DNA of 64,000 nt from Candidatus Bathyarchaeia archaeon (GTDB lineage Archaea > Thermoproteota > Bathyarchaeia > Bathyarchaeales > Bathycorpusculaceae): contig JAVZLM010000003.1 of NCBI GenBank assembly GCA_038883775.1, forward strand, positions 64,001 through 128,000, in the 5' to 3' direction. Both the position numbers and the translations under genes were made by a program. Shown piece after piece: positions 239 to 25,533 of this stretch (positions are counted from its first letter, which is position 1; every line of letters begins with the position of its first letter). The notes beneath the pieces are model-generated. The model ran no database searches. It saw only the letters and a list, made by a program, of their open reading frames with translations, and was not told where the DNA came from.

Positions 239-3200
239 ATGGATATTAAAGAGAAAAAAGCGTATAGTCTATTGTCTGTTCTACTGCTTCTCGTTAGCTT
301 CTTTGCAGCGGCAACGCCTGTGCTTAAAGCTCAAGCTCCTGAAACCGCCGTGAGGGTGTTTGTGAATGCGCCCTATCAGAGTGAGATGACCCTCGGCGAT
401 GGGGTTACTGATGTTAGAGGAACAATTATCAGCATTGCTGTGGTTGTTGAGGATGTTGAGAACCTTTATGGTTTTGACATTAGACTGAAATGGCCTATGG
501 AATACCTTGAATATGTTGACCACACGTTCACCATACCGTGGAATACGAGTCAAACGCCAATCGATCCAAGCCCCTATGCTGGCATTCTGTATGCGCCTGT
601 GTCCCCTGTGCCTGGTCATGGATTGCACTTGGATGTGGGAGAAATTTGGGCTGTTATGGCTTCGCAGGCTCCTGCGCCATCCTTTTACGGTGACGGAACG
701 GTTTTCGTTTTGAGGCTTAGATTGATTAAGCAGCAATACGCCTACGAGGGAGACGTTGAACTCGTTTTAAACATCACTACACATGACTTAGCCGGCAAAG
801 TGCCGCCAGGCCCGCTCATAATTCCACACACGGCATACAATGGACGAATAATCCTTAAGGGAAGGGCTTTTGCTTATCCGCCACTTCCACTTCTGAAAAT
901 ATTGCCAGAAACCATAAAAGACGTTAAACTCTGCGAGAACTTTGACATTAGTGTTTGGCTTATGGGTGAGGGCGGCGTTGACCTGGACCCATTCTGGGAC
1001 ATAAGCGGCTTCGACTTCACAGTAAACTTCAACTCAACCCTCCTAGAAGCAGTCGACGTCAAAATAGACCCAGCCAACTGGTGGCTAGGCTTCTACCCAG
1101 GCGGAGTCTGGACTACGGCAAAAGAAATTGACAATGTTACTGGAAGGGTTAGGATAGCCTTTATGGGTATACCTGACCCATCGCGGACTCCGCCACATGA
1201 TGCGCCACACGGGAAGGGCATCCTTGCCACAATAACCTTCCATGTCATCTACGAGTCTGAGAAGTATCCTCCGCCTTCTGCGCCCATATGGCTTGAAAAC
1301 CCGCTTCCACTAGCCCTCATAGACCTCTACAGCGAAAACGGCCTAATAAACCTCGGCAGCCCCGTATCAACAGACTGGCATGAAATCATGCCGGCATACT
1401 GTAAGCGTTTCGGCCTAACTTTCTGGGAGGATGTTGACGGCGACGGGCGCCTCAGCCCCAACGACCAAATCCGCCTCCTAAACAAAGAAACTGGCAAGTG
1501 GCTCCCCTACCGGGTCCACGCCGTCCCAGTAACCATGCGCGTTGACATCCTACCCTTCGAATACACAGACGAATACCACGAAGGCACAACAGCCTTCACA
1601 AACGCTTGGCCTCACCCAGGAATAGGCTCTTGGACTCCTCCAACGCCAATAACAGAGTATCCGCCTCCAGAAGGCTTCCCACCAGTTAATATATCCCTAA
1701 CCTATCTAGCCCAAGAAGTCCACAGCGTTGAAGTATTATTCCCCAACGGAACAAGAAGACTCCTCAACTACGGAACAGAATGGGACTACTACCCAGGAAC
1801 AAACCTAGTGGAAATAAAAATGATCCTTGGAACGCCAGAAACAGAATATTTCGTTGAAGACGTCAACATGACAACAGGCTGGGAAGGCTACGTACCCAAA
1901 GCAAGAGTCCTCTTAGACCCGCCGCCAACAGGTTGGATCCACCGCATAAGAGTCCAATTCCCAGAGGAAATACCGCCAGAATATCTAGACCTCTGGGATG
2001 GCTTCCAAGGCGAATACATAGAGCTTTTGCCATGGAAGATAAGTGGTGGATACCTATGGATGAACATGTGGGGCGAGCCAGGCTGGGACTATAACTGGGC
2101 TTATCACTACGCTCCAAACGTAGGCGTAGTAGCAATAGCTCCATGGGACAAGTTCCCGCCAGGCACAGAAGTTTGGATAGACTATTTTGCCCAGTCAACC
2201 CAAATATGGGTTAACTACACAGCCCTAGAACTAGAACCAAGATGGATTAAATCCGCAATAGGCGCAGCCGACTTCCCATTCACTGCACCATTAACAAGTG
2301 AATGGACAGAAATAATGCCGAATTTCGACAAAGAACATGTTATAACTGGCTGGACTGACACAGATGTTAACGGTCGCCTCAGCATAGGCGACATAATCCA
2401 ACTCTACGACGTGGAAACTGGCGAAACCAAACCCGCCAACATAACACTACTGGCAACAGGCCTAACCGTAATCCAAAAGCCCGTCATCTGCACCTTCGAC
2501 CTTGAAGACCCATTCTACGGCATGGTAGCCATAGTAGACGTGGCTGGCTTCCCCCACCCAGAAAGACCCATGTGCCCATGGCATAACCAACCCTACGCAG
2601 TCCCCATCCCCCACAAAACAGAACCAGCCACATACACAGCGCCTTTCAAGCCGCCAGGAAGATGGATAGACCTATACCTCTGGGGTATTGAAGCCTGCAA
2701 CGGAACAAGATGGGAATATGCAGACTTCGCCAAAGGATTAGGCCCCAACGAACCAGCCGACGCAGTTCAACCACAAGCAAAAGTGGTCCTCCGCGCCTTT
2801 GTAACCTACAACTTCCAGCCAATAGCAGGAAAATCAGTGACATTCGAACTCATATCCCCAACAGGAGAATTCCACATAATCAGAAGCGCCATAACAGGAG
2901 GCTGGGACACACCACTATACGGCATAGCTGAAGTAATAGTAACAATACCATGGCCATACCCAGACCCAGAAGGAAGAGTCTTCGGAACATGGAACGTCAT
3001 AGCCACAGTAGACATAGTAAAAGTAGTAATCAACGACACCCTAACCTTCAGATTAGGCTACCTAATAGACACAGTCTTCGTAATACCAGGCAAACAAACA
3101 TACCATAAAGGCGAACACATGAACTTCACCCTAACATACACAAGCATATCACACCAAATCCGCACAGCCTACTTCACAATAGTAGTCTACGACGAACTAG

Positions 3201-3400
3201 GCGTACCAATAGCATGGCAAATCCTAGGACCCTTCAACGTCACCTACGGCACCCACACCATAGTATTCGAATGCATGGAAGTACCCCACTGGGCATTCAG
3301 ATACAGATGCACGGCCTACGTCAACGCCCTAACAAGCCTGCCAACCCTCGGCGGAGCACAATACTGCCCAGAAATCTACGCAGTATTCGCAATAGAATAA
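239..3400 (+). CDS. Secreted scaffoldin-like protein: two cohesin-like domains, Ca-binding inserts and a C-terminal beta domain; no TM anchor
   Basis: Signal peptide. Cohesin-like patterns (ISIAVVVEDVENLYGFDIRLKW..LEYV; FDISVWL..ISGFDFTVNFNSTLLEAV..GKGILATITFHV). Two DxDxxGxLS loops. ATG 239 preferred over TTG 215 because GGAG lies upstream. Confidence 0.75.
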   Translation: MDIKEKKAYSLLSVLLLLVSFFAAATPVLKAQAPETAVRVFVNAPYQSEMTLGDGVTDVRGTIISIAVVVEDVENLYGFDIRLKWPMEYLEYVDHTFTIPWNTSQTPIDPSPYAGILYAPVSPVPGHGLHLDVGEIWAVMASQAPAPSFYGDGTVFVLRLRLIKQQYAYEGDVELVLNITTHDLAGKVPPGPLIIPHTAYNGRIILKGRAFAYPPLPLLKILPETIKDVKLCENFDISVWLMGEGGVDLDPFWDISGFDFTVNFNSTLLEAVDVKIDPANWWLGFYPGGVWTTAKEIDNVTGRVRIAFMGIPDPSRTPPHDAPHGKGILATITFHVIYESEKYPPPSAPIWLENPLPLALIDLYSENGLINLGSPVSTDWHEIMPAYCKRFGLTFWEDVDGDGRLSPNDQIRLLNKETGKWLPYRVHAVPVTMRVDILPFEYTDEYHEGTTAFTNAWPHPGIGSWTPPTPITEYPPPEGFPPVNISLTYLAQEVHSVEVLFPNGTRRLLNYGTEWDYYPGTNLVEIKMILGTPETEYFVEDVNMTTGWEGYVPKARVLLDPPPTGWIHRIRVQFPEEIPPEYLDLWDGFQGEYIELLPWKISGGYLWMNMWGEPGWDYNWAYHYAPNVGVVAIAPWDKFPPGTEVWIDYFAQSTQIWVNYTALELEPRWIKSAIGAADFPFTAPLTSEWTEIMPNFDKEHVITGWTDTDVNGRLSIGDIIQLYDVETGETKPANITLLATGLTVIQKPVICTFDLEDPFYGMVAIVDVAGFPHPERPMCPWHNQPYAVPIPHKTEPATYTAPFKPPGRWIDLYLWGIEACNGTRWEYADFAKGLGPNEPADAVQPQAKVVLRAFVTYNFQPIAGKSVTFELISPTGEFHIIRSAITGGWDTPLYGIAEVIVTIPWPYPDPEGRVFGTWNVIATVDIVKVVINDTLTFRLGYLIDTVFVIPGKQTYHKGEHMNFTLTYTSISHQIRTAYFTIVVYDELGVPIAWQILGPFNVTYGTHTIVFECMEVPHWAFRYRCTAYVNALTSLPTLGGAQYCPEIYAVFAIE
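948..1108 (+). repeat. 161-bp near-identical block shared with 7393-7553
   Basis: Direct comparison shows only about 3 mismatches. Further shared blocks at about 1265-1585 / 7710-8030 and about 2205-2640 / 8970-9400. Confidence 0.9.
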
Positions 3401-3433
3401 AACAATAAAAACTCAACCCACCCCCCTTTTTAT
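3401..3433 (+). terminator. Putative archaeal terminator (C-run then T-run)
   Basis: aacaataaaaactcaacccacccccctttttat directly after the stop. Similar tracts at 125-140, 10650-10680 and 16872-16908. Confidence 0.5.
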
Positions 3434-3489: not shown

Positions 3490-4479
3490 ATGCCTGAATA
3501 TACCAAAAATATGCCTATCAAAATTATCACAGTTTCCTTATTATTGTCCTTTTTGACAATAACCTTAGGCTGCGCCCAACTCGAGCCACTAAAAATAACC
3601 ATCGCCACTGACAAATCTACTTATCAATATAGGGAAATTGTAAACATATATGGAAACGTGACGTATGAAGGCGCTCCCGTGGAAAGGGGGTTAGTAGCGA
3701 TCAGTATAAGATATCCAAATGGTACAATAATAAGCGTGAGAACCGTTCCTGCCAAAAGCATCCCCTCAACTACTTGGAATGTTGGAATAACATCTTTTAT
3801 ATCTTGTGATCAAAATGGAAATCCAAAAAAGGACTTTAGGCGAGACTCTTTTGCATATTTTTATATGATCGCAAAAAACAATATTCCTTTTAGCTATACT
3901 GTTTTGCTCACAATTTCAGTTTATGATGTTGATCAAACTCCAATAGGAATCCTATGGCAAGGACCGGTTTCCGTGCCAGGTAATTCCGAAATTGGTTGGC
4001 TTATTGGAGTTTTAATCCCCACATGGGCGTCCACAGGAACCGGAAGGGCATACGCCAATGTGTACACAGATTGGCCGGAAAAAGGTGGTTACCCATATTG
4101 TCCAGAGTGGAACACTACTTTTAACATTGAACGTCAAACATCAATCCCAAATATTCCAAGTACAAACAATACTTACCAAGTATCATTTCGATTGCCCCCC
4201 TATGTACCTAGAGGCACATACCTAATTAATGTAAGCGCCTGGTATTCTGGATGGAAAGCTTTCCAATACACTACTTTCACGGTCGATTATAGGCTATTGG
4301 GAGACGTTGCCGAACCTTGGGGAATTATTAACGTATATGATGTGGTGATGTTAACATCCATATACGGCTCAAAAAGTGGCGATCAAAACTGGAATCCTGA
4401 ACTAGACTTAAATTCAGATGGCAAAATAGACATTTATGATGTTGTGATAGTAACTTCACAATATGGAACAAGATATTAG
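3490..4479 (+). CDS. Secreted protein with C-terminal dockerin
   Basis: Signal peptide. C-terminus LLGDVAEPWGIINVYDVVMLTSIYG..NWNPELDLNSDGKIDIYDVVIVTSQYG is a duplicated Ca-loop+helix (type I dockerin pattern). Confidence 0.8.
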   Translation: MPEYTKNMPIKIITVSLLLSFLTITLGCAQLEPLKITIATDKSTYQYREIVNIYGNVTYEGAPVERGLVAISIRYPNGTIISVRTVPAKSIPSTTWNVGITSFISCDQNGNPKKDFRRDSFAYFYMIAKNNIPFSYTVLLTISVYDVDQTPIGILWQGPVSVPGNSEIGWLIGVLIPTWASTGTGRAYANVYTDWPEKGGYPYCPEWNTTFNIERQTSIPNIPSTNNTYQVSFRLPPYVPRGTYLINVSAWYSGWKAFQYTTFTVDYRLLGDVAEPWGIINVYDVVMLTSIYGSKSGDQNWNPELDLNSDGKIDIYDVVIVTSQYGTRY

Positions 4480-4559: not shown

Positions 4560-4642
4560 CCTTCCTTAGTGTTTGAATGGAATTTAATTCCAAAATCTTT
4601 ATACGGTATCGCGCTCGATATTGTTATGGGAGAGGGGGAAAT

Positions 4643-6562
4643 ATGCAAAAAAGGAAAATTTTACAATTTTTGTTTTTCTTTCTGATGCTGATTATATGTT
4701 TTGTTTTCGAGGAAGTTTCGATATACGCTAAAGAAAGCGTTTCTTTTTCAGCTGAGAGTGAAAAGCCACTAGTTTATGTGGATCCGCCGGAGGTTCGAAA
4801 CTTGGCTGTTGGTAAAACTTTTACGATTAGTGTTAAAATCGCTAATGTTACAAACCTTTACGGCGTTGACATTGAGTTTCACTGGAACCCGACAATTTTA
4901 GAATATATGGAACATACTGTTTTGATTCCAGTGGACGATTATCCCGGCGGCGTTTTATATAAGCCCATTATGCCGATTGCAAATACGGTGAATGCCACTG
5001 GTGGAACATATAAGGTTGCTTATGCTTCCATGCTTCCTGCACCATCATTTGACGGAAGTGGAACAGTTTTCACGATGAAGTTTAAAGTGAAGAGCATAGG
5101 ACGCTCTTTATTGGACATTTATACGAGTGATTTGTCTGGAAAAGTTCCTCCGGGACCACTTATCATATACCATGATGTTCAAGATGGATACTTTTCTAAT
5201 TATGTTCCTTCGAAAGCGAAAATTTACATAAATCCTCCAAAAATAATAGATTCAACCTTAACGCCCACATCCAATTTCACAGTAAACGTAAACCTTGAAA
5301 ACGTAGTTGAATTTGACACCTTCGAATTTTGGATAAACTATAACACGACAATTTTAGACGCCTTTAATGTCACGGTTAACCCAACATTTCCAGCGGCACA
5401 AACCAATTTACAAATTATGGAAGCAGAAGGCAAAATTCGAACCAAAGCTTGGCTTCAACCAGCATCCCCACCCTACACGGGCAATCTAATGCTTGCGTCA
5501 ATAATATTTAAAGTGGCAGATATTGGCGCGAGCACTCTCGACTTGTATAATATTACGTTAGTGGATGCATGGAAAGAAAATATTCCATATCAAGAACCTG
5601 GAGACGGCTTTTTCAGTAACATGTTATTAACAAAGCTTTTTATTGATCCTAGCGAAATCATTGACCCCACGATACGTCCACCCATGACTTTCAATATTTA
5701 TGTTAAAGCTGAAAATGTTATGGATATGTATGGTTACGAGTTCAAACTATCTTATGATACAAACGTTTTAACTGCTTTAGGCGTTAGGATTCTTCCGCCA
5801 ACAAATGATACGAGCTTCACTGTTACTACAAGTATTGACGACCCATCGGGCTACATATGGATTAAAGTTCAATATTATCCGCCAGCCGTGCCCATCACTA
5901 TAACTTCCGCAAAAGCATTAGTGGAGTTGTTGTTCCAAGTTCAATCGTTAGGAGTTACCGTTCTCGACTTGCATGATGAGAGGCTTACAGACGTAAATGG
6001 CAACCAAATCCGCGTAGACGAGGTTGGAGATGGCTTCTTTATGTCTATTATAAGAAATGTTGCTATTTTAAATGCTACAGCCACTCCGAACAAAGTTTAT
6101 CCTGGAAGGATGGTTACAATAACTGTTTTGGTGAAAAACTTGGGCATTGGAATGAGTGAAACATTCAATGTGACCGTTTACTATGACAACAACCCGATTG
6201 CAACACAGATCGTCGCAGACCTTGCTCCCCAACACGAAACGACATTGACGTTTTTGTGGGATACCACCGGCTTACAGCCATGCAACAATTATACAATAAG
6301 GGCTGAAGCAAGCCAGGTTCCATTCGAGGTTAATTTGGAGGACAATATTTACTTTGATGGTTGGGTGAAAATTAAAATATGGGGCGATGTGGATGGCGAC
6401 GGAGATGTTGACATTTATGATATCGCCCTGGCGTCAGCAGCCTATGGAAGCCGTCCCGGAGATCCAAACTGGAATCCAGAGGCGGATGTTGCACCGGAAT
6501 GGGGCTTCATCAATATTTATGATATGGTGACAATTTCGTCTTATTATGGACAGACGTGTTAG
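4643..6562 (+). CDS. Adaptor scaffoldin-like protein: three cohesin-like domains, CARDB-like domain, C-terminal dockerin
   Basis: Three repeats of the (V/I)xPP..F(T/N)(I/V)x(V/I)..NV..YG.(F/E)..(W/Y)(N/D)..(I/V)L pattern. CARDB-like RNVAI..ITVLVKNLG..ETFNVTVYY. Dockerin WGDVDGDGDVDIYD..DVAPEWGFINIYD. ATG 4643 follows GGAGAGGGGG. Confidence 0.8.
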   Translation: MQKRKILQFLFFFLMLIICFVFEEVSIYAKESVSFSAESEKPLVYVDPPEVRNLAVGKTFTISVKIANVTNLYGVDIEFHWNPTILEYMEHTVLIPVDDYPGGVLYKPIMPIANTVNATGGTYKVAYASMLPAPSFDGSGTVFTMKFKVKSIGRSLLDIYTSDLSGKVPPGPLIIYHDVQDGYFSNYVPSKAKIYINPPKIIDSTLTPTSNFTVNVNLENVVEFDTFEFWINYNTTILDAFNVTVNPTFPAAQTNLQIMEAEGKIRTKAWLQPASPPYTGNLMLASIIFKVADIGASTLDLYNITLVDAWKENIPYQEPGDGFFSNMLLTKLFIDPSEIIDPTIRPPMTFNIYVKAENVMDMYGYEFKLSYDTNVLTALGVRILPPTNDTSFTVTTSIDDPSGYIWIKVQYYPPAVPITITSAKALVELLFQVQSLGVTVLDLHDERLTDVNGNQIRVDEVGDGFFMSIIRNVAILNATATPNKVYPGRMVTITVLVKNLGIGMSETFNVTVYYDNNPIATQIVADLAPQHETTLTFLWDTTGLQPCNNYTIRAEASQVPFEVNLEDNIYFDGWVKIKIWGDVDGDGDVDIYDIALASAAYGSRPGDPNWNPEADVAPEWGFINIYDMVTISSYYGQTC

Positions 6563-6683
6563 CCTAATTTTTTCCATGTTCTCAATTTTAGACTTTTTAT
6601 TTTCTTCCTTTAGGCTTAACTTAGTTAAAGATAGAAAAATTCAAATATTCATCGCTAAAATACATAGAGTCTGCGGTGAAAGA

Positions 6684-9600
6684 ATGATGAATAATTTATG
6701 GAAAAAACTGAGTAACTGCTTATGGATTTCGTTGATTATTTCAGCGATGCTTTTATCCAATGTTCATGTGATGGCAGGAAATGAATATTCAATTCAGCAG
6801 GCACCAACAAAAGTGAGGGTAATACCCTCGCCTATAGAATTTAAAGGAGGAAACGCTACAGGTCAAGAGTTTGATGTTGCGGTTGTTGTTGAAAATGTAA
6901 CCAACCTTTATGGCATTGATATCAATATGACCTGGGATATAACATACCTTGAGTATGTCAGCCACGAATTCACAATGCCAGTAACCGACTATCCAAATCC
7001 CATTCCTCCAAGCCCCTATCCAGGAATTTTAAATGGTCCATTAATAACCACCATCGAAGATGTTAACCCAACCGCAGGTTACATAAGAGTTGGTAAGGCT
7101 ACAATGGCCCAACCTCCGCCTCCATCATTCAACGGAAACGGCACAGTCTTTGTTGTTAAATTTAGAGTGAAATATCATCCGCAAGAAGCTGACACAGTGA
7201 CTTATCTACATTTGGCCTCAACAGATTTGGCTGGCAAAATGCCGCCTGGGCCTCTTATTATACCCCACGAGCGTCAAGACGGTGTAGTTATTTTACGCTC
7301 CTATTTTGAGTATCCACCAATGCCATTATTAGATTTGAGAATAAACGGAGATAAGGAATACAATGCTATAAGAATAGGCGAGCGCTTTAACGTTAGTGTT
7401 TGGCTTATGGGTGAGGGCGGCGTTGACTTGGACCCATTCTGGGACATAAGCGGCTTCGACTTCACAGTAAACTTCAACTCAACCCTCCTAGAAGCGGTCG
7501 ACGTCAAAATCGACCCAGCCAACTGGTGGCTAGGCTTCTACCCAGGCGGAGTCCAAGTCTTTGCGGAGTCTATTGATAACACAGTGGGCAGAGTTAAAAT
7601 AGCCTTCATCGGCTTGCCTGACCCAACGCAAACGCCGCCTCATGATCCTCCGAATGGTAAGGGTGTTTTAGCCATCGTGACTTTTCACGTTATTTATGAG
7701 TCTGAGACGTATCCTCCGCCTTCTGCGCCCATATGGCTTGAAAACCCGCTTCCACTAGCCCTCATAGACCTCTACAGCGAAAACGACCTAATAAACCTCG
7801 AAACTCCAGTCTCAACAGACTGGCATGAACTCACCCCCACATACTGCAAACACTTCAATGTTACTTTCTGGGAGGATGTTGATGGCGACGGGCGCCTCAG
7901 CCCCAACGACCAAATCCACCTATTAGACAAAGAAACAGGCAAGTGGCTTCCCTACCGGGTCCACGCCGTCCCAGTAACCATGCGCGTTGACATCCTACCC
8001 TTCGAATACACAGACGAATACCACGAAGGAACAACAATATTCACCAACACGTGGCCGCCATATCATGCGCTTCTAAGTGGGCTAAAGCTTGATCCCGCGT
8101 ATCCCGTTATAACTTGGCCGCCAACATACGTTCCAGTGAACCTTACGCTGTCTTATGCAGCTTTGGACGTAAGCTCCGTTGAGGTTGAATTTCCAAATGG
8201 TACAAGAAGGCTGTTAACCGAAAACACTGAATGGGAATGGTTCTACGGGTCAGATCAACTTGAAATCAAAATACCGCTTGGCGTGCCAAAATCCTGCGCC
8301 TTCGTTGAGGGCGTCAACATGACAACAGGCTGGGAAGGCTACGTTCCGAAAGGCAGAGTTATACTCCCAGACCAAACAACAGGCTGGATTCACCGATTCG
8401 TCGTCACACCAGTCAAAGACAGAATAGACCTTTACGTAACCATAGTTGACAGCGCCGAATTTAATGTCACAAGAACCTATGCCATATACCTCAACGAAAC
8501 ACTAATAGAAACAGGAGAGCTAACCTATCTTGGAGAGCCAATAGAGCTATACACGGTCATAAATGACATAGACCCCGGATACTACGTCTTAAACTTCACC
8601 TTAGACAGTCCAGACGACAAACCATGGAGCGTAGAAATTTATGGAGCACTTTTCTACTCATATGAGGACGAATTCTACACAGAAGGCAACGTAACGATAT
8701 CATCTCCACTAACAGTCGATTTCACTGCGGATCCACCAACCTTAACCGTGCTTCCATTAGGCGAGCGGGGCGGCTACCTATGGATGAACATAGATGCTGA
8801 TGGAGACGGCGACGCTGAACCAGGATGGTACTGGAACATGGGATACGACTATGCCCCAAACAACCCAGTTGTTGCCATCGCCCCAACATGGACTGGAACA
8901 GAACCAACAGACAGATTCCCGTTAGGAACAGTTGTTACAATAGATTATATGGCTGAATGCACAAAAATGTGGGTTAACTACACAGCCATCGAGCCTACTA
9001 AATGGATTAAATCCGCAATAGGCGCAGCTGACTTCCCATTCACTGCACCATTAACAACCGAATGGAAAGAACTAATGCCATATCCAGACAAGCAACATGT
9101 TATAACTGGCTGGACTGACACAGACGGCAACCACCGCCTAAGCATAGGCGACATAATCCAACTCTACGACGTGGAAACTGGCGAAACCAAACCCGCCAAC
9201 ATAACACTACTGGCAACAGGCCTAACCGTAATCCAAAAACCAGTCATCTGCCTCGCCGACACATCAGACCCATTCTACGGCCAAGTAGCAATAGTGGACG
9301 TGGCCGGCTTCCCCCACCCAGAAAGACCCATGTGCCCATGGCACAACAAAGCCTACTCAGTCCCCATCCCCCACAAAACAGAACCAGCCACATACACAGC
9401 GCCCACACGGGGACCAATAGCGAATTTCACTTATACCCCAAGCGAACCAGTGCAATTTGAAGAAATAACATTCGACGCTTCTCTAAGCTATTCTCCAGCT
9501 AACAAGACAATTGTCAGTTATGTTTGGGATTTTGGTGACGGTTCTCCAGTTGTTGTTGAATCGGATCCAATAACAACCCATGCATACCTCAGTTCAGGAG

Positions 9601-10649: not shown

Positions 10650-10753
10650 CCTTCAACACCCCACTTTTATTTTTCAATTTTTTAACTCTTAAATAAGAAA
10701 AGCTTAAAAATTAAGCTTCAACATAGTGGTAACACAAATTGCATGGTGAAAAC

Positions 10754-13990: not shown

Positions 13991-14386
13991 ATGTTTCATA
14001 AAAAATTGTATAAGTGGATTTGTTTAATTTTAGGTTTTGTGGGAATGATTAATGTGGCTACTGTGGGGCTTTATTTGGTTGTAACATGCCTTAGTTTGTC
14101 TCCTTTTCCAGGGGGCGAACATTTTCTTTTTTATGCTTATGCGGCAGCTATTTTAGCGGTTGTTTCCATGTTGCTTCTGGTTTGTGGTATTTGCTTGATG
14201 TGGAGAGGGCGTTTGCGGATGGGAGGCGCATTTAATTTTTTTGCTGGAGTATTTTTTGTTTCCTTTTACTTTTACTTTTCATTTTTTTCTCAACCGTCGA
14301 TGCTTGGATGGTTTTGGCCTTTTGGTTGTTTGCTTTTTCTTCCATTATTTTTGAGTGGCGTTATTGGAATGTTTGTTAAAGGTTAA
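13991..14386 (+). CDS. Hypothetical four-TM membrane protein
   Basis: 131 aa with four hydrophobic segments. GGAGG-like SD upstream. Confidence 0.65.
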   Translation: MFHKKLYKWICLILGFVGMINVATVGLYLVVTCLSLSPFPGGEHFLFYAYAAAILAVVSMLLLVCGICLMWRGRLRMGGAFNFFAGVFFVSFYFYFSFFSQPSMLGWFWPFGCLLFLPLFLSGVIGMFVKG

Positions 14387-14420: not shown

Positions 14421-14434
14421 AGAAAACCTTAAAT
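14421..14434 (+). promoter_or_regulatory. BRE-TATA promoter of the solute-binding protein gene
   Basis: agaaaaccttaaat. Near-identical aaaccttaaata at 16915-16926 and 20026-20037; related boxes at 181-194 and 10696-10710. Confidence 0.55.
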
Positions 14435-14480
14435 GGCAATTCGCGTTACAATAGTTTTTGAGAGAAAGGAGAAAGAGGTT

Positions 14481-16958: not shown

Positions 16959-17951
16959 ATGGGCTTCAAAACCTACCTAGTTAAAAGGACCATATATAGC
17001 CTAGCACTTTTATGGGCTATAATGTCAGTAAACTTCATAATCTTCTCCCTTATACCAGGAGACCCAATCGGCAGATGGGTTAAAAACCAAGAGGCAGCCA
17101 TATCAAAAGAAGAAATAATGGAGTTAAGGCGAATCTACGGGCTGGATATGCCACTCCACGAAAGATACTTCTTGTATCTTCAAAACATGTTAACATGGAA
17201 CTTTGGAAGATCACGATACACACAAGCAGACATAAAAACAGACATAATGAATAGACTTGGAAACACCCTCTTACTCTTGGGAATAGCAGACGGCTTCACA
17301 ATATTTGCCGGAACATTGTTAGGCGTATTAGTTGCATACAAAAGAGGCTCAAAATTAGACACAGCATTAGTCACAGCCTCCCTAGGCACATACAGCCTAC
17401 CAGTCTTCTGGTTAGGATGGCTAATACTCTTCTTTTTCGCCATATACCTAAAATGGTTCCCAGTTGGGGGAATATACCCAGCCGAATGGATGAAACAGTG
17501 GCCCACAAGCATAGTAGAAATAATTGCTGGAAGACTGAAACACATAGTCCTCCCAGTTTTAACCCTTTTCATCTTTAACGTAGGCGGATGGCTACTATTA
17601 ACAAGGTCATGCGTACTCGAAGCCATAACCGAAGACTACGTAGTAACAGCAAGGGCAAAGGGATTAAGCACAAGAAAAGTCTTGTTAAACCACGTCTTAA
17701 GAGTTGCATCCCTACCAATCGTCACATCTCTAGCTTTAACATTAGCTGGACTTTGGAGCGGCGCAATTGTAACCGAAACCGTTTTCAGTTATGAGGGAAT
17801 GGGAAGGTGGATTTGGAGGGCCATCGGATTACAAGACATACCAATCATGTACGTTGTTTTCTACATATCCGCCCTCACAATAATCATTGCCAACTTCATG
17901 GCAGACCTCATTTATGGAGTATTAGATCCAAGAATAAGAGTCGGGGGATAA
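16959..17951 (+). CDS. oppB: Oligopeptide ABC transporter permease
   Basis: YGLDMPLHERY, DYVVTARAKGL EAA loop, ETVFSYEGMG, LDPRIR. Confidence 0.93.
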   Translation: MGFKTYLVKRTIYSLALLWAIMSVNFIIFSLIPGDPIGRWVKNQEAAISKEEIMELRRIYGLDMPLHERYFLYLQNMLTWNFGRSRYTQADIKTDIMNRLGNTLLLLGIADGFTIFAGTLLGVLVAYKRGSKLDTALVTASLGTYSLPVFWLGWLILFFFAIYLKWFPVGGIYPAEWMKQWPTSIVEIIAGRLKHIVLPVLTLFIFNVGGWLLLTRSCVLEAITEDYVVTARAKGLSTRKVLLNHVLRVASLPIVTSLALTLAGLWSGAIVTETVFSYEGMGRWIWRAIGLQDIPIMYVVFYISALTIIIANFMADLIYGVLDPRIRVGG

Positions 17952-17953
17952 AC

Positions 17954-19573
17954 ATGGCCACATACAAAGAGAGAGCAGCCTTCACACTTAAAAGACTAAA
18001 AAATTTCTGGAGGGATTTCTCCAGAAGCAAAAGAGGAGTCCTAGGAGTTGTCATCATACTATTCTACATTATAGTAGCCTTAATAGGTCCACTATTCATA
18101 ACAATTGACCCCCTCTTTCCAACAATGCCAGGATACTACCCAGCAGGCCCAGCTCCAATAGCTGATGTTCTATGCAAACCCACATGGTACAAGTACTTTC
18201 CAGGCAGAAGCGGCATGTCAGAAAACATGAAGTTAATATCAGATCACGAGTTCTCCTCAATCAAAGCAATGGAGGCTTGGGATCAAAAGACTAACGCTCC
18301 AAACTTAATAAGCTATGCATATAACCCAACAGCGGGATCCCACAACAACGACGGATGCATCGAAATATCCTATAACCGCCCAGCCGATTACACTAGCACT
18401 GAAACACCATACCTTCAAATAACCCACAACTTTACCTATCCATACCAGGAAAGCCCAAGAAAATTCTGGATACACCTCTCCTTCCTCCTCAACGGCACAA
18501 TAACAAGGGAAAGTTACGTGTCAATAGAAGTATCATTTTACAGAATTCAAACCCCCCCACCGCCATTAAATTATACGTACCCAAGTTCTCTAACAACGTA
18601 CATAGACTCATTAATAATTTACAAATACCCACTACATAGCATAAATACAACTAGTCCCTCCGCAACCTGGACTCACATGTGGATCACCTCAACCAGAGAC
18701 AGCATAATGTACGATCCAAAATACTACCTCAAACCATGCGCCATCATATTTCCAACATCAGGCAATTACACATTTGAAATTAAAGTAAGCTTTTACGACA
18801 CAGCAACCACTGAAAGAGAAATAAAAGTTTATCTCGACAATTTAGACGTGCTAATTTACGGAGAAGCCTACGGCATACTCGGAACAGACTATAAGACAGG
18901 AGGCCCAAGAGACAACCTAATATCCCTCGTATACGGCGCAAGAATCTCAATATTCGTCGGTTTACTCGCAACCTTTATCTCCGTCAGCCTCGGCTTACTC
19001 GTAGGATTAACAGCAGGATACGTTGGAGGATTAGGCGACGAAGCACTAATGAGACTTGCAGACTTCCTCATGTGCCTCCCAGGCTTGCCATTATATATTG
19101 TGCTGATGGTAGTCTTAGGAAGCTCCATATGGAACGTAATATTACTCATGTCCTTCCTTGGATGGATGGGTTTCTCACGCCAAATAAGATCCATGACCCT
19201 ATCATTACGCGAAAGAGCCTTCGTTGAAGCCGCCAAGGCCGCCGGAGCAGGCAAAGTCTGGATCCTATTTAAGCATATTCTCCCAAACGTCTTCGCGCTA
19301 GTTTACATAGCATTAGCAGTTTCAGTTCCAGGAGTTGTATTAACAGAAGCAACATTAAGTTGGCTCGGACTATTCGATCCAAAACAAATATCATGGGGAA
19401 GAATGCTTCACGAATTCTCCCAAGCAGGTGTTGCAGTTGCAAGAGGCATCGAAGATTACTGGTTCTGGGTGATTCCACCAGGCATAGCCATCGCCTTATT
19501 AGCGATAGCCTTCGTGTTGCTCGGCTACTCTTTAGATGAAATATTAAATCCCAAGCTTAGAGTAAGACGTTAA
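17954..19573 (+). CDS. oppC: Oligopeptide ABC transporter permease with a large extracellular insert
   Basis: LGTD..LVYGARISI, FVEAAKAAGA, HILPN, SWGRML, LDEILNPKLR. About 230 aa insert after TM1. Start at MATYKE. Confidence 0.9.
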   Translation: MATYKERAAFTLKRLKNFWRDFSRSKRGVLGVVIILFYIIVALIGPLFITIDPLFPTMPGYYPAGPAPIADVLCKPTWYKYFPGRSGMSENMKLISDHEFSSIKAMEAWDQKTNAPNLISYAYNPTAGSHNNDGCIEISYNRPADYTSTETPYLQITHNFTYPYQESPRKFWIHLSFLLNGTITRESYVSIEVSFYRIQTPPPPLNYTYPSSLTTYIDSLIIYKYPLHSINTTSPSATWTHMWITSTRDSIMYDPKYYLKPCAIIFPTSGNYTFEIKVSFYDTATTEREIKVYLDNLDVLIYGEAYGILGTDYKTGGPRDNLISLVYGARISIFVGLLATFISVSLGLLVGLTAGYVGGLGDEALMRLADFLMCLPGLPLYIVLMVVLGSSIWNVILLMSFLGWMGFSRQIRSMTLSLRERAFVEAAKAAGAGKVWILFKHILPNVFALVYIALAVSVPGVVLTEATLSWLGLFDPKQISWGRMLHEFSQAGVAVARGIEDYWFWVIPPGIAIALLAIAFVLLGYSLDEILNPKLRVRR

Positions 19574-19576: not shown

Positions 19577-19957
19577 TTAACCTTTACTCAAAGAATCTAT
19601 TTTTTCATCTAAAAATCTCCAAAAATCATCCTCAATTTTTTCCAAAGCCTCTAAAGACTTCAAACCTTTCGATAAAAACCATCCACCGCCCAAAAATGAT
19701 GTCAACCAGCCAAACTTAACAAACGAACGAGAACGCCTTCCAGCCTCAAAAACCACCAAGAAATCATCAGGTTTCCCTCTAATAAAAACTTCAATGTGTT
19801 CGCATAAGTCATGAATGCGCCTAGGAGCTGCTGTAATCTTATACTCTTCCGATGAACACTGCATATTCGTCAAAAAACCCCTATGCTTAAAGAAACCCTC
19901 TAAAACTTCACACAGCAACTTTAAGTTAATATTTTTTCGAATCCACCGACTCTGCAT
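19577..19957 (-). CDS. Hypothetical protein
   Basis: 126-aa ORF filling the oppC-oppD gap on the opposite strand. GAGG upstream. Confidence 0.65.
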   Translation of the reverse strand: MQSRWIRKNINLKLLCEVLEGFFKHRGFLTNMQCSSEEYKITAAPRRIHDLCEHIEVFIRGKPDDFLVVFEAGRRSRSFVKFGWLTSFLGGGWFLSKGLKSLEALEKIEDDFWRFLDEKIDSLSKG

Positions 19958-20110: not shown

Positions 20111-21073
20111 ATGGAATTACTTAATGTCAACAACTTAAAAACTTACTTTTTCACACTGAGTGGTGCAGTGAAGGCTGTAGACGGCGTAAATTTTGTAATT
20201 GAAAAAGGAGAAGCAATGGGGTTAGCCGGAGAATCCGGTTGCGGAAAAACCACAGTAGCCCTATCGCTTTTAAGAATTCTTCCACCAGGAGGAAAAATTG
20301 TTGGCGGAAAAATCCTATTCAAAAACTTAAACATAGTCGACTTAGATGAAAGTGATCTGCGGAATAAGGTAAGATGGAAAGGAATTTCTTTAATATTCCA
20401 AGGAGCAATGAATGCGCTTAACCCCGTCCACAGGGTAAAGGACCAAATTATAGAAGCAATAAAGTTACACGAACCGCATGTAACAAAGGATGAAGCTAAA
20501 GAAAGAGTTTTAAAACTCTTTGAAATGGTAGGTTTAGATCCTTCAAGGGTTAACAGTTATCCTCATGAATTAAGTGGAGGAATGAAGCAGCGTGCCATGA
20601 TAGCAATGGCTCTAGCGTGCAACCCCGAACTTTTGATAGCGGATGAACCTTCAACAGCATTAGACGTTATAGTTCAAGCTCAAGTCCTCCAACTTATAAA
20701 GCATTTAAAAGAAAAACTACAGTTATCCATGATACTTATATCTCATGATCTGTCAATTGTTGCCGAAACATGCGATAAAGTGGCTATTATGTATGCGGGA
20801 AAAATAGTAGAATACGGAGATGTCAAAACACTTTTCGAGGAACCTCTACATCCATACGCACAAAGTTTGATAAAGGCCTTTCCACACATTAAAGAAGCTA
20901 AGACCCGCTTAATTTCTATACCAGGCGCTCCCCCAGATCTAATAAATCCTCCCACTGGTTGTCGATTCCACCCCAGATGCAGTTATAGTATGGAAATTTG
21001 TAAGAAAAAAGAACCGCCTATGATAAATGTTAAGGGTAACGCGCATTACGTAAGTTGTCACCTTATTGGTTAA
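20111..21073 (+). CDS. oppD: Oligopeptide ABC transporter ATPase
   Basis: GESGCGKT, YPHELSGGMKQR, IADEP, C-terminal GCRFHPRC..C..VSCHL. Confidence 0.95.
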   Translation: MELLNVNNLKTYFFTLSGAVKAVDGVNFVIEKGEAMGLAGESGCGKTTVALSLLRILPPGGKIVGGKILFKNLNIVDLDESDLRNKVRWKGISLIFQGAMNALNPVHRVKDQIIEAIKLHEPHVTKDEAKERVLKLFEMVGLDPSRVNSYPHELSGGMKQRAMIAMALACNPELLIADEPSTALDVIVQAQVLQLIKHLKEKLQLSMILISHDLSIVAETCDKVAIMYAGKIVEYGDVKTLFEEPLHPYAQSLIKAFPHIKEAKTRLISIPGAPPDLINPPTGCRFHPRCSYSMEICKKKEPPMINVKGNAHYVSCHLIG

Positions 21074-21093
21074 GTTGATGGAGAGATAACAAA

Positions 21094-22089
21094 ATGAGCG
21101 AAACAATAGTTAAAGTAGTAAATTTGAAAAAATGGTTTCCTGTAAAATTGGGTTTCTTTAAAACATTAGTTTCCCGCAAGCAACTTTATGTTCGCGCGGT
21201 AGACGGCATAAACTTAGAAATAAAAAAGGGAGAAATTTTTGGACTTGCAGGCGAAAGTGGGAGTGGAAAGACCACTACAGGACGGTTACTTGTTAAACTT
21301 ATTGAACCAACATCCGGACAAATTTTCTTTGGTGATAAAGATGTAACTAACCTTCCAGAAAGCCAATTTAAGCCTTTCCGTCAAAAAATACAAATAATTT
21401 TCCAAGATCCATATGAGTCGCTTAATCCTAGAATGACAATTTTTGACATTATAGCTGAACCTTTACGCCTTCAAGCTGGTTTAAGCGGATCTGAACTTGA
21501 TGAAAAAGTTTTCAAAGTCTTAACCGACGTAGGTTTAGTTCCGCCTCATGAGTTCATTTTTAGATTCCCCCACGAGTTAAGCGGAGGACAAAGGCAACGA
21601 GTGGCTACGGCGAGAGCTTTATCGCTGAGTCCAGATTTCATAGTTGCTGACGAACCAGTGTCAATGTTAGATGTATCTATCAGAGCAGAAGTTTTAAATT
21701 TAATGTTCGATTTAATGAAGAAGTACCATGTGTCTTTCCTTTACATCACACATGATTTAGCATTAGCTCGACACATCTGCGACGAAATAGCTATAATGTA
21801 TCTTGGTAAAATCATGGAAAAGGGACCTACAGAAAAAGTCATTTATGAACCTTTGCATCCCTACACAAAAGCCCTAATATCAGCTGTTCCTGTTCCTGAC
21901 CCATCATCAAAACGAGCGGAAATAGTGATAAAAGGAGAAATTCCAAGTCCAGTTAACCCACCCCCAGGCTGCAGATTCCACACAAGATGTCCAGAATACA
22001 TTGGCGACGTGTGTAGAACAAAAGAGCCAACGCTTATAAATGTGGGAAAGGCTCATTATGTTGCATGCCATTTATACTCTAAACCTTAA
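21094..22089 (+). CDS. oppF: Oligopeptide ABC transporter ATPase
   Basis: GESGSGKT, FQDPYESLNPR, LSGGQRQR, VADEPVSMLDVS, GCRFHTRC. Confidence 0.95.
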   Translation: MSETIVKVVNLKKWFPVKLGFFKTLVSRKQLYVRAVDGINLEIKKGEIFGLAGESGSGKTTTGRLLVKLIEPTSGQIFFGDKDVTNLPESQFKPFRQKIQIIFQDPYESLNPRMTIFDIIAEPLRLQAGLSGSELDEKVFKVLTDVGLVPPHEFIFRFPHELSGGQRQRVATARALSLSPDFIVADEPVSMLDVSIRAEVLNLMFDLMKKYHVSFLYITHDLALARHICDEIAIMYLGKIMEKGPTEKVIYEPLHPYTKALISAVPVPDPSSKRAEIVIKGEIPSPVNPPPGCRFHTRCPEYIGDVCRTKEPTLINVGKAHYVACHLYSKP

Positions 22090-22102
22090 AATCTTCAAAA
22101 TT

Positions 22103-22366: not shown

Positions 22367-22458
22367 AAAATAAAAAGGTTTCTCTTCTACTTTTAGTGCA
22401 TTTACCTCAAGAATAAAATATTAATTGTTCTTATTATATTATAACATTTATTGAAAAT

Positions 22459-25400
22459 ATGGAGATGAAGGAACTGAATATCAAGATAGCAATTTTAGTA
22501 ACGCTGCTAACTTTCCTGACATTAACATTAAATGGCATAAGCGTAATAGAGGGGCAATGCGTAAACCAGGCGTCGCTCGAATGGAATCAAAGAGACCTTG
22601 AACGGATTCTTGATCAACAAGACCGGTTGAAAAAAATTGCCTATGTGAAAAACGACCTTGTCAGGTTGGTGTTGGGAGTTGATGCTCAAGTTTCATATAG
22701 CTATTTTAAGCTGGAAAAAGTTGTTGCCGCTTATAGTGGGCGCATAGTTAATTTAATCTCGATGAACAGCGAAGTTAAAGCAGTAACTGTTGAAATTCCA
22801 ATAAAGCGCTCTTCGATTTTTATGAGTGAAATAACTGAAAAAAAGATGGCAAAGTTTATTGAGCCTAACTTTAAATTTCAATGTCAGTTTGTTCCAAATG
22901 ATCCTTATTGGACACTGCAGTGGGGACCGCAAAAAATAGAAGCTCCTTGGGCATGGAACATAACAGTAGGTGACCCCTCAGTTCTTGTGGCGGTTGTGGA
23001 TACTGGAATAGATTATTCCCATCCAGATCTAGCTGCTAACTATGTCGCCCTTGGCAGGGATTGGGTGAACGGTGACCCGGATCCCATGGATGATGAGGGA
23101 CATGGAACACATTGTGCAGGCATAATAGCCGCTGTATTAAATAACGGCATCGGCATCGCCGGGGTGGCTAAAATTAAAATAATGGCTGAGAAAGGTCTTG
23201 ATAGAACAGGATCCGGATACACAGATTGGCTTGCGAATGCCATCATTCACGCTGTAGAAAAAGGTGCCAAAATTATAAGCATGAGCTGGGGAGGATACTA
23301 CCACAGCAAACTAATTTATGAAGCAATTAAATATGCTTATGATTCTGGCGTGCTTTTAGTGGCGGCCGCAGGTAACGATCGAGTAAATGCAAAACTATTC
23401 CCTGCGGGTTATAATGAAGTTATAGCCGTTGCGGCAACAGACGATTACGATAATGTTGCTTCATGGTCCAACTTCGGCGATTGGATTGAATTGTCAGCGC
23501 CGGGAGTGCAGATTTATTCTACTTATCCAAGAAATAATTATGTGTATTTAAGTGGGACTTCGATGGCGGCGCCGCATGTAAGTGGTGTTGCAGCTTTAAT
23601 TTGGAGCCAATTTCCAGAAAAAAGCAGAGACTGGGTGAGGATACGTTTACGATACACTAGCGATGACATCAGTTTTCCAGGTTATGATATTCGTTCTGGT
23701 TATGGAAGAATTAACGCAAGAAAAGCTGTTGAGCAGCCTCTGTTAAATCATGATTTAGCCTTTTACGATTGGGAGTTTCCTCCTTATGTAGAACCAGGAA
23801 GCACGGCAACGGTTAATTTTACAGTGTTGAATTTTGGAGCGCAAAACGAATACGATGTAACTATACAGCTGTTAATAGAGGGAGCCCTCACAAACTTTAC
23901 CGTTATAAGCTTCATTGCTAATGGTACATCTGAAACAGCAAGTGTTAAATGGAACCCAGTTACAAAAGGAAATTATAACGTCACTTTATATTTGGTTCCC
24001 GTATCTGGCGAATTTTCCATCCAAAATAACAGAGTTACAAAATTTGTTTATGTAGATTTTCCAAGAAAAGCTTTGGTTCTAAGTTCAGAAGGGAATGTTT
24101 TAAGTTTTGTCACCCGCAATTGGGATGAGTTAAATGCGAAATGGTCTTCCTTTGGAGATAACATGATCTACATTGATTATACAACTTTAAACAAAGAAGA
24201 CATAACGTACGAAGAGATTGCAACTACAAACGCAGACGTTTTAATAATTTCGAGTGCATGGACTTCCGAGTATGGATGGGAATTTACAGATTCAGAAATA
24301 GACGCTATAAAGAGATACGTGCTTGAAGGACACGGATTAATAGTTACGGAAGCTACATTTTATCATCCAGTTCAAAACAATGTTAAGTTAGCTTCGCTGT
24401 TAGGGTTAAACGACTCGTTAATCTGGAATTATACAACAGCCACCTCTCTCAATCTGATAGAACCTAGCCATCCGCTTCTACGTGGAATCCCAAATCCCTA
24501 TTCTTTTCCGGAAGTAACAACTATGATTTCTTTAGACGGTTTATGGGATGACAATGAGTTAGAAGGCGGCAAATATATTGCGCTGGGAAGCAATAAGAAA
24601 ACTGCAATAGTTGTCTCTGAACGTGGCCGCGTTTATATTTCGCCTTATCTTGAAAGTATAGATCCATCAGCAAGTCAGAATCATCTAAAGTTACTTTACA
24701 ACGCCATTACATGGTCACCTCATGAACTTTCGGTATCATTGGATGCGCCAAATTATCATCCTTTAGGCGAATCATTGCTGCTTAATGCAACAGTTCATAA
24801 CATTGGATCCGTAAATGAAACAAATGTTCTTTTGCAATTGATTATTAATGGTTCAACAGTCTGTTCCGCAGTTATTGCAGAGTTAAAAAGCAATTCTTCT
24901 TATACGATAAGCTACTTATGGACGCCGGAAGAGGGCGAATACAATGTTACAGCTTATGCTGCTCCAGTAAAAGGCGAGACTTTTAAAATCAACAATACTG
25001 AAACGAAAATTGTCAAGATATCGCGTTTTCGTGATGTGGCGGTGTTTAACATTTCAGCTCCGAATGCGGCTTATAAAGGAAGTATTGTAAAAATCGAAGT
25101 TTTGGCAGGAAATTTGGGAGAACTCAGCGAAACCTTTAATGTTACCGTATACTGTGACTATACACTTATAGCCACGCTTCCTGTGGTAGACTTACTCCCA
25201 AAACAAAATATAACATTAACACTTTGGTGGAACACTTCAGCGTTAACACCTTGTCATACGTATAATATTTGGGCTGAAGCAACATCGGTTTCAGGTGAGG
25301 TTAACATAGAAAATAATGTTTTCATTGGGGTGCAAGTGAAGATTAAAATGCTTGGAGATGTAAATGGAGATGGTAACATTAACATTTACGATGTTGTGTT

Positions 25401-25533
25401 GGTCGCGTCAATTTATGGATGCAAAGAAGGAGATCCCAACTGGAATTCAGAAGCCGACTTGGCTCCACCATGGGGATTAATCAACATATATGACATTGTA
25501 GTAATAACCTCCGTATATGGGCAAAAATGTTAA
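22459..25533 (+). CDS. Secreted subtilisin (S8, thermitase-like) with CARDB domains and C-terminal dockerin
   Basis: Triad VAVVDTGID / HGTHCAG / GTSMAAPHVSG, oxyanion AAGND, propeptide, three CARDB-like units. Dockerin LGDVNGDGNINIYD..ADLAPPWGLINIYD. Confidence 0.92.
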   Translation: MEMKELNIKIAILVTLLTFLTLTLNGISVIEGQCVNQASLEWNQRDLERILDQQDRLKKIAYVKNDLVRLVLGVDAQVSYSYFKLEKVVAAYSGRIVNLISMNSEVKAVTVEIPIKRSSIFMSEITEKKMAKFIEPNFKFQCQFVPNDPYWTLQWGPQKIEAPWAWNITVGDPSVLVAVVDTGIDYSHPDLAANYVALGRDWVNGDPDPMDDEGHGTHCAGIIAAVLNNGIGIAGVAKIKIMAEKGLDRTGSGYTDWLANAIIHAVEKGAKIISMSWGGYYHSKLIYEAIKYAYDSGVLLVAAAGNDRVNAKLFPAGYNEVIAVAATDDYDNVASWSNFGDWIELSAPGVQIYSTYPRNNYVYLSGTSMAAPHVSGVAALIWSQFPEKSRDWVRIRLRYTSDDISFPGYDIRSGYGRINARKAVEQPLLNHDLAFYDWEFPPYVEPGSTATVNFTVLNFGAQNEYDVTIQLLIEGALTNFTVISFIANGTSETASVKWNPVTKGNYNVTLYLVPVSGEFSIQNNRVTKFVYVDFPRKALVLSSEGNVLSFVTRNWDELNAKWSSFGDNMIYIDYTTLNKEDITYEEIATTNADVLIISSAWTSEYGWEFTDSEIDAIKRYVLEGHGLIVTEATFYHPVQNNVKLASLLGLNDSLIWNYTTATSLNLIEPSHPLLRGIPNPYSFPEVTTMISLDGLWDDNELEGGKYIALGSNKKTAIVVSERGRVYISPYLESIDPSASQNHLKLLYNAITWSPHELSVSLDAPNYHPLGESLLLNATVHNIGSVNETNVLLQLIINGSTVCSAVIAELKSNSSYTISYLWTPEEGEYNVTAYAAPVKGETFKINNTETKIVKISRFRDVAVFNISAPNAAYKGSIVKIEVLAGNLGELSETFNVTVYCDYTLIATLPVVDLLPKQNITLTLWWNTSALTPCHTYNIWAEATSVSGEVNIENNVFIGVQVKIKMLGDVNGDGNINIYDVVLVASIYGCKEGDPNWNSEADLAPPWGLINIYDIVVITSVYGQKC

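Follow-up and report, generated by a model that had tools for sequence, protein, structure and literature searches.

A 64,000-nucleotide stretch of a Candidatus Bathyarchaeia archaeon (contig JAVZLM010000003.1, positions 64,001 to 128,000), called the window below and numbered G000:C3:64001-128000 with G000 as the source genome, contains a gene cluster in which proteins with cohesin or dockerin domains flank an Opp-type importer. A preliminary description took this cluster for a cellulosome-like 'peptidosome' that digests protein at the cell surface and hands the peptides to the importer. We read it instead as what is probably a general cell-surface docking system.

The genes named here are all read on the plus strand. 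Protein A (215..3400, likely start 239) has a signal peptide, cohesin 1 (338-865), a split cohesin 2 (881-1273 and 2534-2650), a macroglobulin-like domain (2657-3055) and an immunoglobulin-like (Ig) domain (3059-3397), with neither a dockerin nor a C-terminal anchor. Protein B (3490..4479) consists of a signal peptide, an Ig domain (3892-4131) that is homologous to the last domain of A, and a C-terminal dockerin (4285-4476). Protein C (4577..6562, likely start 4643), an adaptor scaffoldin, carries three cohesins (4760-5203, 5210-5626 and 5627-6049), a CARDB domain (6053-6373) and a dockerin (6374-6559). The anchoring scaffoldin D (6546..10649, likely start 6687) has cohesin 1 at 6801-7304, a cohesin 2 with a large insert, two PKD domains, a stalk and a membrane helix (10551-10631), and the anchoring protein E (10739..13933) contains a CARDB domain, a single cohesin (11192-11653) and PKD and Ig domains before its C-terminal membrane helix (13844-13912). 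The Opp-type importer is complete: a circularly permuted family-5 solute-binding protein (SBP; 14433..16871) that ends in a dockerin (16644-16868) and has no C-terminal membrane helix, the permeases OppB and OppC (16959..19573, oppC likely start 17954), and the ABC ATPases OppD and OppF (20111..22089), both with oligo_HPY tails. After a gap of 369 bp follows a secreted subtilisin of family S8 (22459..25533) with CARDB domains and a C-terminal dockerin (25339-25530). Every element of the preliminary layout, that is 2+3+2+1 = 8 cohesins, two membrane anchors, four dockerins and oppBCDF, is present in these reading frames. Its single-strand locus holds for the named genes but not for one minus-strand open reading frame (ORF) between oppC and oppD, which encodes a hypothetical protein of 126 amino acids (aa) (19577..19957).

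The count of two cohesins in A, three in C, two in D and one in E comes from a profile built from these very domains, and independent evidence therefore has to come from Pfam and from the fold. With Pfam PF00963, C (77.3 bits) and D (30.9 bits) exceeded the threshold of the model, and A and E (18.8 bits each) fell short of it. In fold searches with AlphaFold2 models (mean pLDDT 92.6 for C and 85.2 for A), cohesin C2 matched 6kgc (Z 16.0, root-mean-square deviation [rmsd] 2.3, 132 residues aligned), C3 matched 5k39 (Z 14.7, rmsd 2.4, 136 aligned), A1 matched 4dh2 (Z 14.1, rmsd 2.9, 142 aligned) and A2 matched 4uyp (Z 14.6, rmsd 2.6, 143 aligned). The best 17 rows for the C model were all titled cohesin or cellulosome component, and the best non-cohesin, an adhesin domain, reached Z 10.4. 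The nine-stranded jelly-roll is matched in these four domains, and the generic Ig fold that would have spoken against cohesins did not appear. Homology links A to D (60% over 577 aa) and E to C (42% over 149 aa). Of 8000 candidates scored, 217 were homologues of protein C, and those that are named belong to Bathyarchaeia (the three source names that give a taxon, and 70 of 75 loci with a title).

The A2 match spans model residues 183-771 with only 143 residues aligned, so this cohesin is split by an insert. In A the insert (1274..2533, plus strand) is about 421 residues long and is flanked by two small beta domains with DxDxDG-type loops; the insert in cohesin 2 of D has about 526 residues, and three short (~640-aa) homologues measured have 27-33 residues. 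The A insert had no match in the ESM Atlas. A likeness seen by eye between this insert and that of the SBP was not borne out on comparison. The inserts lie at window positions 1274-2533 and 7719-9293, each bounded by two small domains with calcium-type loops, and the flanking domain occurs in six copies in L112:220-3771. A and D (window 933-2643 and 7378-9403) also have in common DNA blocks of 680 and 497 bp with 85-86% identity, and in run X1 two contigs pass from the sequence of one gene to that of the other, which may reflect mosaic alleles in related strains or assembly artefacts.

The dockerins of C, the SBP and the subtilisin are 44%, 42% and 56% identical to that of B. Pfam PF00404 placed B and the subtilisin below cut-off and missed C and the SBP. 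We then used a profile of 48 sequences from the source genome and its relatives, with all four cluster dockerins included. Its top matches were solved type II dockerins (2y3n, E 6e-19; 4wi0, 2b59, 4u3s, 5k39, 3kcp and 5g5d, E 1e-12 to 4e-11), followed by type I dockerins (E 7e-8 and weaker) and calmodulins. These matches confirm the four C-terminal dockerins of the preliminary description and mark them as type II-like. Two calcium-loop-plus-helix repeats with Asp or Asn at positions 1, 3, 5, 9 and 12 are found in C and the subtilisin, and the C model has the two helices. Across 157 dockerins, Asp stands at positions 1 and 12 in 147 of 153 first repeats and in 155 of 155 second repeats.

In the same 157 dockerins, the positions most alike within genomes were 10, 11, 14, 17 and 20 of both repeats. 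The within-genome difference at positions 10/11 was 0.31, compared with a median of 0.055 over all columns and at most 0.03 in 300 label shuffles; without the source genome, the values were 0.30 versus 0.05. Because label shuffling ignores kinship, orthologues were compared with neighbours as a second test. At positions 10, 11, 14 and 17, unrelated proteins of the same genome agreed at 0.64-0.71 (10, 7 and 6 pairs), whereas orthologues of different genomes agreed at 0.16-0.24 (66, 45 and 45 pairs); the corresponding values at other dockerin positions were 0.42-0.53 and 0.29-0.50. We conclude that these recognition residues follow the genome, not the protein. Published accounts of type II dockerins give positions 10 and 11 (PMC8063739) and positions 10, 17 and 20 (PMC5590126) as recognition or binding positions. 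Within the cluster the SBP carries the code IYVT/IYVT, B has VYVT/IYVT, the subtilisin IYVA/IYVT and C IYAS/IYVS.

Among 14 multi-cohesin adaptors, the dockerins of adaptor and cargo of the same genome matched at 0.54, compared with 0.48 between cargo proteins and 0.22 between adaptors of different genomes. Because the adaptor dockerin carries the recognition residues of the cargo, no two-tier type I/type II hierarchy is visible at the level of sequence, and the cellulosome-like hierarchy of the preliminary description is not borne out. A second opp cassette in the source genome (G000:C1:166141-180056; L177, L017) encodes two SBP-dockerins coded MDLI/MYTL and two membrane-anchored cohesins of its own. 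Outside the source genome, its SBPs, dockerins and cohesins are all nearest to those of one relative, G012, and it looks like an imported, self-contained plug-socket pair. The genome-specific code, together with the separate code of this cassette, suggests functional, selective pairing.

In the SBP family the two halves are swapped by circular permutation: profile positions 24-299 align with residues 198-449 of 4oet, and positions 354-569 with residues 5-194. A permuted SBP is also encoded at G000:C3:27079-29388, and the Pfam pattern suggests membrane-tailed permuted forms in dockerin-negative relatives too. Solved relatives that bind peptides, nickel, opines or sugars gave similar scores, with mannoside- and chitin-oligosaccharide-binding proteins at E 2e-26 and 6e-21 and the best match at E 1e-30. 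No NCBIfam model reached its cut-off, and a literature search for sugar-binding family-5 proteins in archaea returned nothing relevant. The peptide specificity assigned to the SBP at the outset is thus unsupported as stated, since peptide-, nickel- and sugar-binding structures score about equally. The seven family-5 SBPs of the source genome comprise four with a dockerin and no C-terminal helix, two with a helix and no dockerin, and one with neither; among 20 further family-5 SBPs chosen from relatives, four had a dockerin, 11 a helix, five neither and none both. In these proteins, the dockerin takes the place of the membrane anchor, and the two never occur together in the 27 of 27 examined. 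An SBP-dockerin was found in 12 of 22 dockerin-positive relatives (nine genomes from the cargo census described below and three from a direct look at SBPs).

On the cohesin side, D and E each end in a hydrophobic helix, and they are indeed two membrane-anchored cohesin proteins, as first described. The genome encodes five cohesin proteins with C-terminal membrane helices. One of them lies just upstream, as the cluster starts before the window: an 811-aa protein with CARDB, cohesin and PKD domains and a C-terminal membrane helix (G000:C3:61678-64110, plus strand) precedes A, and its 3' end occupies window positions 1..113. Between the stalk of D and those of membrane-tailed SBPs no significant similarity was found (best E 0.02). 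The macroglobulin-like domain of A matched 2p9r at Z 11.1 in the fold search, and MG2-like entries led for the end of A in the ESM Atlas (0.85-0.90); when all of A was submitted to Foldseek, the matches were exclusively long and multi-domain. We find no support for A as an S-layer protein, as S-layer entries appeared only at TM-scores of ~0.1 and the domain pair of A was not found in 22 of 40 relatives. B follows A in related clusters, and from gene order we would guess that A is probably attached through B, which would account for how A is held. A third protein, G000:C8:73411-75399, has a macroglobulin-like plus Ig pair as in A, a C-terminal membrane helix and, by eye, InlB-like repeats; it is a possible anchor for A or B.

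Our favoured reading, which we hold with reasonable though incomplete confidence, is a general cell-surface docking system with the dockerin in place of a membrane anchor. Secreted cargo ends in a type II-like dockerin, and this dockerin would clip with calcium onto cohesins held by the C-terminal membrane helices of D, E and the upstream protein. The most regular functional cargo, the binding protein of the Opp-type importer, would thereby be held near the permease. Peptidases (in this genome the subtilisin and, from a different contig, a C45/M14 protein) are additional cargo that varies, as are beta-helix proteins and long arrays of PKD domains. Adaptor C would multiply the sites, with cargo and adaptors competing for one class of socket. 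Cohesin C1 is nearest to own-genome cohesins of the upstream anchor, D and A, while C3 is nearest to cohesins of other genomes. If C1 binds the main code, which the dockerin of C shares, then C can bind C, and adaptors can probably stack. Protein A brings sockets but no anchor. Most likely, then, nutrient-binding proteins, some proteases and adhesin-like proteins are clipped onto membrane anchors.

Several observations weigh against this reading. Four of the eight cohesins have no fold row of their own (C1 was modelled within C; D1, D2 and E1 are assigned by Pfam or homology). Module copying could explain part of the within-genome likeness of dockerins, and the tails of C and the subtilisin (last CARDB plus dockerin) are 54% identical. 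No cohesin column co-varied with the dockerin code among 120 C homologues, a set with little diversity in code (none above z 1.5; the control behaved alike), and over 91 genome pairs cohesin similarity followed non-recognition positions (rho 0.57) more than the code (rho 0.36). Genome-specific columns among 134 cohesins were weak. Transcription was not demonstrated, as the RNA data amounted to five reads from one raw run and, for two other runs, contigs that belong to related strains. A sigma-70 promoter scan is unsuited to archaea and was disregarded, and a complex prediction for D cohesin 1 with the SBP dockerin scored 0.03 against a mark of 0.32, which by the rule of the tool is uninformative either way. 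The first calcium loop of the SBP dockerin lacks positions 1, 3 and 5. With the partly degenerate first loop of the B dockerin, three short or half-dockerin ORFs in the genome and the lack of co-variation on the cohesin side, this could also mean that the modules are relics, or plain calcium-stabilised spacers, with no pairing left. We regard that explanation as highly improbable, given the strict co-occurrence of dockerins and cohesins, the genome-wide code repeated in both helices, which the SBP retains in full despite its degenerate loop, and the mutual exclusion of dockerin and membrane tail.

The docking system takes a mixed cargo. With profiles iterated on these genomes, the source genome has 14 cohesins in nine ORFs and 15 dockerin ORFs. 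Of the latter, four encode family-5 SBPs and two encode peptidases (S8; C45 plus M14); a further four are of the scaffold type, a beta-helix protein and a repeat protein occur once each, and the last three are short or half modules. For the relatives, 150 of 213 dockerin hits were listed and 110 of these, outside the clusters, were typed; of 81 merged regions with an ORF of at least 200 aa, 80 were fetched. They yielded 139 dockerin ORFs in 21 genomes, a few of them cut at region ends and 137 at least 100 aa long, and these were typed by Pfam from the best five families per protein and tallied by hand. Among the matches listed for the 137 proteins, there were 16 family-5 SBPs in nine genomes, 13 peptidases in eight genomes (S8 7, C39 3, C25 2, M14 1), 18 beta-helix proteins lacking both peptidase and SBP domains in 11 genomes, four PKD arrays of 5 to 48 domains, and single others; of all 139 ORFs, 43 also carried a cohesin. 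Left out of this census was a search of 1.84 billion representatives with the dockerin profile, which gave mostly unnamed multi-dockerin proteins. No glycoside hydrolase (GH) family was found by Pfam in the 15 of 15 window proteins examined, in agreement with the preliminary description, nor in 18 further source-genome proteins or among the matches listed for the 137 dockerin proteins of relatives.

Beside the census, we note that three dockerin-tipped proteins of relatives (L140, L083 and L082) have 48, 32 and 20 PKD domains and reach up to 4961 aa; they are candidate long adhesins. G000:C20:4122-7193 (L015) encodes a secreted fusion of C45/AAT, M14 carboxypeptidase and dockerin, with a similar protein in G007 (L108). 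At three loci of the source genome (G000:C2:8730-9982; C1:145494-145817; C1:151664-152556), two genes, one for a beta-helix protein with dockerin and one for a second subtilase, each appear split over two ORFs, and one 108-aa ORF amounts to hardly more than a signal peptide with a dockerin, which may represent pseudogenes or assembly errors.

The absence of GHs also bears on carbohydrate capture, in which the family-5 SBP would bind oligosaccharides and the beta-helix cargo would act on glycans. The oligosaccharide-binding proteins score near the peptide binders, beta-helix proteins are the largest single cargo class in the relatives, and the neighbouring protein G has a CBM96 domain. Nevertheless, the recognisable enzymes among the dockerin proteins are mostly peptidases, and we consider this explanation very unlikely.

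Among 40 relatives, 22 have dockerins and 25 have cohesins; all 22 are among the 25, three have cohesins only and 15 have neither. Since these genomes are incomplete and related, the counts are descriptive and not independent. In an even sample of the class, dockerins were found in 16 of 90 genomes (E 1e-8). The end of A occurs in 17 of the 22 dockerin-positive relatives and in one of the 18 others. We compared gene order in 20 regions from 15 genomes, several of which stop at contig ends. A, B and C, in some cases with one gene added, stood in this order in seven of the 15 genomes; an SBP-dockerin lay within the cluster in six and a subtilisin in two, in one of which the dockerin is encoded by the following ORF. 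At 12 further loci with a three-cohesin adaptor, which may overlap the 15-genome set, A, a dockerin gene and C stood in order in eight and an SBP-dockerin in six. An S8-dockerin was found at none of the 12, although this is an unfair test, as the flanks were 10 kb and the window's own subtilisin lies 16 kb from C.

These data allowed us to weigh the dedicated 'peptidosome', in which the scaffold would hold proteases beside a peptide receptor so that cutting and import occur at one spot. The subtilisin appears intact by its catalytic motifs (PF00082 202.8 bits; Asp-His-Ser triad motifs at residues 177, 215 and 366; an N-terminal hydrophobic stretch as signal peptide), it has one code and one locus in common with the SBP, the genome has a second dockerin peptidase, and peptidases are the commonest catalytic cargo in the relatives. 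However, peptidases make up only 13 of 137 dockerin proteins among the matches listed for relatives and two of 15 in the source genome, and they occur in eight of 21 genomes compared with 11 for cargo of the beta-helix type alone. The S8 gene does not belong to the conserved cluster (a subtilisin lies in two of the 15 clusters compared), several dockerin-rich genomes have subtilases that are absent among the dockerin matches listed, and the ligand of the SBP is not settled by structure scores. A dedicated proteolytic complex therefore seems unlikely to us. From that proposal the cohesin folds, the type II-like dockerins, the anchors and adaptor, the apparently intact subtilisin and the importer with its dockerin-bearing SBP remain as parts of the general docking system.

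The shared code and the cargo also raise the possibility of a mainly structural or adhesive outer coat, in which self-code adaptors would chain into a branched calcium-linked mesh with long adhesins, and transport cargo would ride along. The match between adaptor and cargo codes fits such a mesh, as do the many dockerin ORFs with a cohesin, the non-catalytic conserved core A-B-C, the arrays of 20, 32 and 48 PKD domains and the outer sheath seen on Bathyarchaeum tardum (PMC10477458). The words cohesin and dockerin are absent from that paper, though, and the system went undetected in 18 of 40 close relatives and in 74 of 90 genomes sampled across the class, which argues against a universal wall. 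Furthermore, the co-variation test gave no sign of which C cohesins bind the self code. We think it distinctly unlikely that the coat is the main function.

A combined form is conceivable, and we offer it as a speculation that is rather improbable as a whole: with one code for adaptor and cargo, C and the many proteins with one cohesin and one dockerin would link up through calcium into a branched protein coat on the outer side of the membrane, which would show the cell's own receptors, proteases and adhesins and exclude those of neighbouring species, while imported cassettes would bring their own code and anchors. If true, cellulosome parts would here form an envelope layer that extends itself and recognises its own kind.

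Further genes accompany the cluster. Between E and the SBP lies a small hydrophobic protein of 131 aa (13991..14386, plus strand) with no Pfam or NCBIfam match, and hydrophobic ORFs that resemble it in being of equal length are present in two related clusters. ORFs resembling the 126-aa minus-strand protein by eye adjoin opp genes in some related clusters. Downstream, the membrane-anchored surface protein G (25626..29252, plus strand) has CBM96/DNRLRE, PKD and InlB-like repeats and neither cohesin nor dockerin; in several relatives its gene is the last of the cluster. The interval between oppF and the S8 gene (window 22089-22458) holds a short minus-strand reading frame of hydrophobic character, which may encode a small membrane protein. 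Upstream of the cluster, G000:C3:43934-57083 encodes a C45-family protein (Pfam) and, by eye only, two TldD/PmbA-like pairs and S9-like and M14-like peptidases, a protein-turnover neighbourhood in which no dockerins were found.

Bathyarchaeia are abundant sediment archaea for which the literature poses the start of protein breakdown as an open question (PMC9534799), and the cluster supplies concrete, expressible parts for studying the display of receptors and enzymes in about half of the close relatives sampled. The role of archaeal non-cellulosomal cohesins is a long-standing question, for which two codes in one genome provide a built-in control of specificity, and the genome-specific codes, being numerous, offer candidates for orthogonal plug-socket pairs in designer enzyme assemblies. 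New in this analysis are the single genome-specific code, the second cassette with its own code, the cohesins split by inserts of 421-526 residues and the circularly permuted SBP. We found no publication describing such a system in Bathyarchaeia, judged by title and abstract opening in a search whose coverage leaves out most subscription journals.

Previous work on anaerobic methanotrophic archaea (ANME) describes proteins in which one dockerin is combined with as many as five cohesins, as well as NikA/OppA-type proteins that bear dockerins (Chadwick et al. 2022, PMC9012536); dockerin/cohesin proteins of ANME are also reported by Timmers et al. 2017 (PMC5244752), and the cohesin/dockerin protein list in the supplement of PMC9012536 holds subtilase-family domains. 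As far as these passages go, the two systems are alike in combining a dockerin and several cohesins in one protein, in the dockerin on NikA/OppA-type binding proteins and in the lack of cellulases. They differ in phylum, ANME-2c has S-layer-domain dockerin proteins, and the passages on ANME have no counterpart of the conserved cluster with membrane-helix anchors beside opp, the recognition code, the split cohesins or the A-B pair.

In Candidatus Stygibacter (Cloacimonadota), a cellulosome-like complex proposed to break down polypeptides combines a multi-cohesin scaffoldin with peptidases of families S8 and C25 that end in dockerins (PMC8542988), and the peptidase cargo and the scaffoldin are features that it shares with the present system. 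The part of that account devoted to the complex concerns a bacterium with one 3,755-aa scaffoldin with carbohydrate-binding modules (CBMs) and with GH18 and GH57 cargo, and describes no dockerin on a transporter subunit. The Archaeoglobus fulgidus cohesin 2xdh has the same fold as the cohesins studied here (Z 14.4 with the C model and 14.0 with the A model). The A. fulgidus pair is a minimal two-gene system whose role is not known. Unlike that pair, the source genome has its cohesins and dockerins spread over nine and 15 ORFs. Binding of the A. fulgidus modules has been reported, as cited in a passage of PMC9012536.

Another related system is the clostridial cellulosome, with CipA and its SdbA/OlpB anchors, ScaA/B/C of Acetivibrio, and Bacteroides cellulosolvens with the types reversed (PMC8063739, PMC5590126 and PMC12484212); its two levels use different cohesin-dockerin types (PMC8063739, PMC12484212). 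The cohesin fold, the symmetric dockerin repeats and the species-specific recognition residues are common to both, and C repeats the cohesin-X-dockerin II layout of CipA (3kcp over model residues 294-604, Z 14.5, rmsd 12.9). In contrast to those accounts, we find no GH and no CBM3, membrane helices where those systems have SLH or sortase anchors, and a single code that adaptor and cargo share in place of distinct tiers of type I and type II. Of the features by which a cellulosome is recognised, the multi-cohesin scaffoldin (C) and the surface anchors (D, E) are here, while a dockerin-bearing GH and, judging from sequence, two tiers of specificity are not. We conclude that this is a real, lineage-wide docking system, which is no cellulosome although it works in the manner of a cellulosome's anchoring half.

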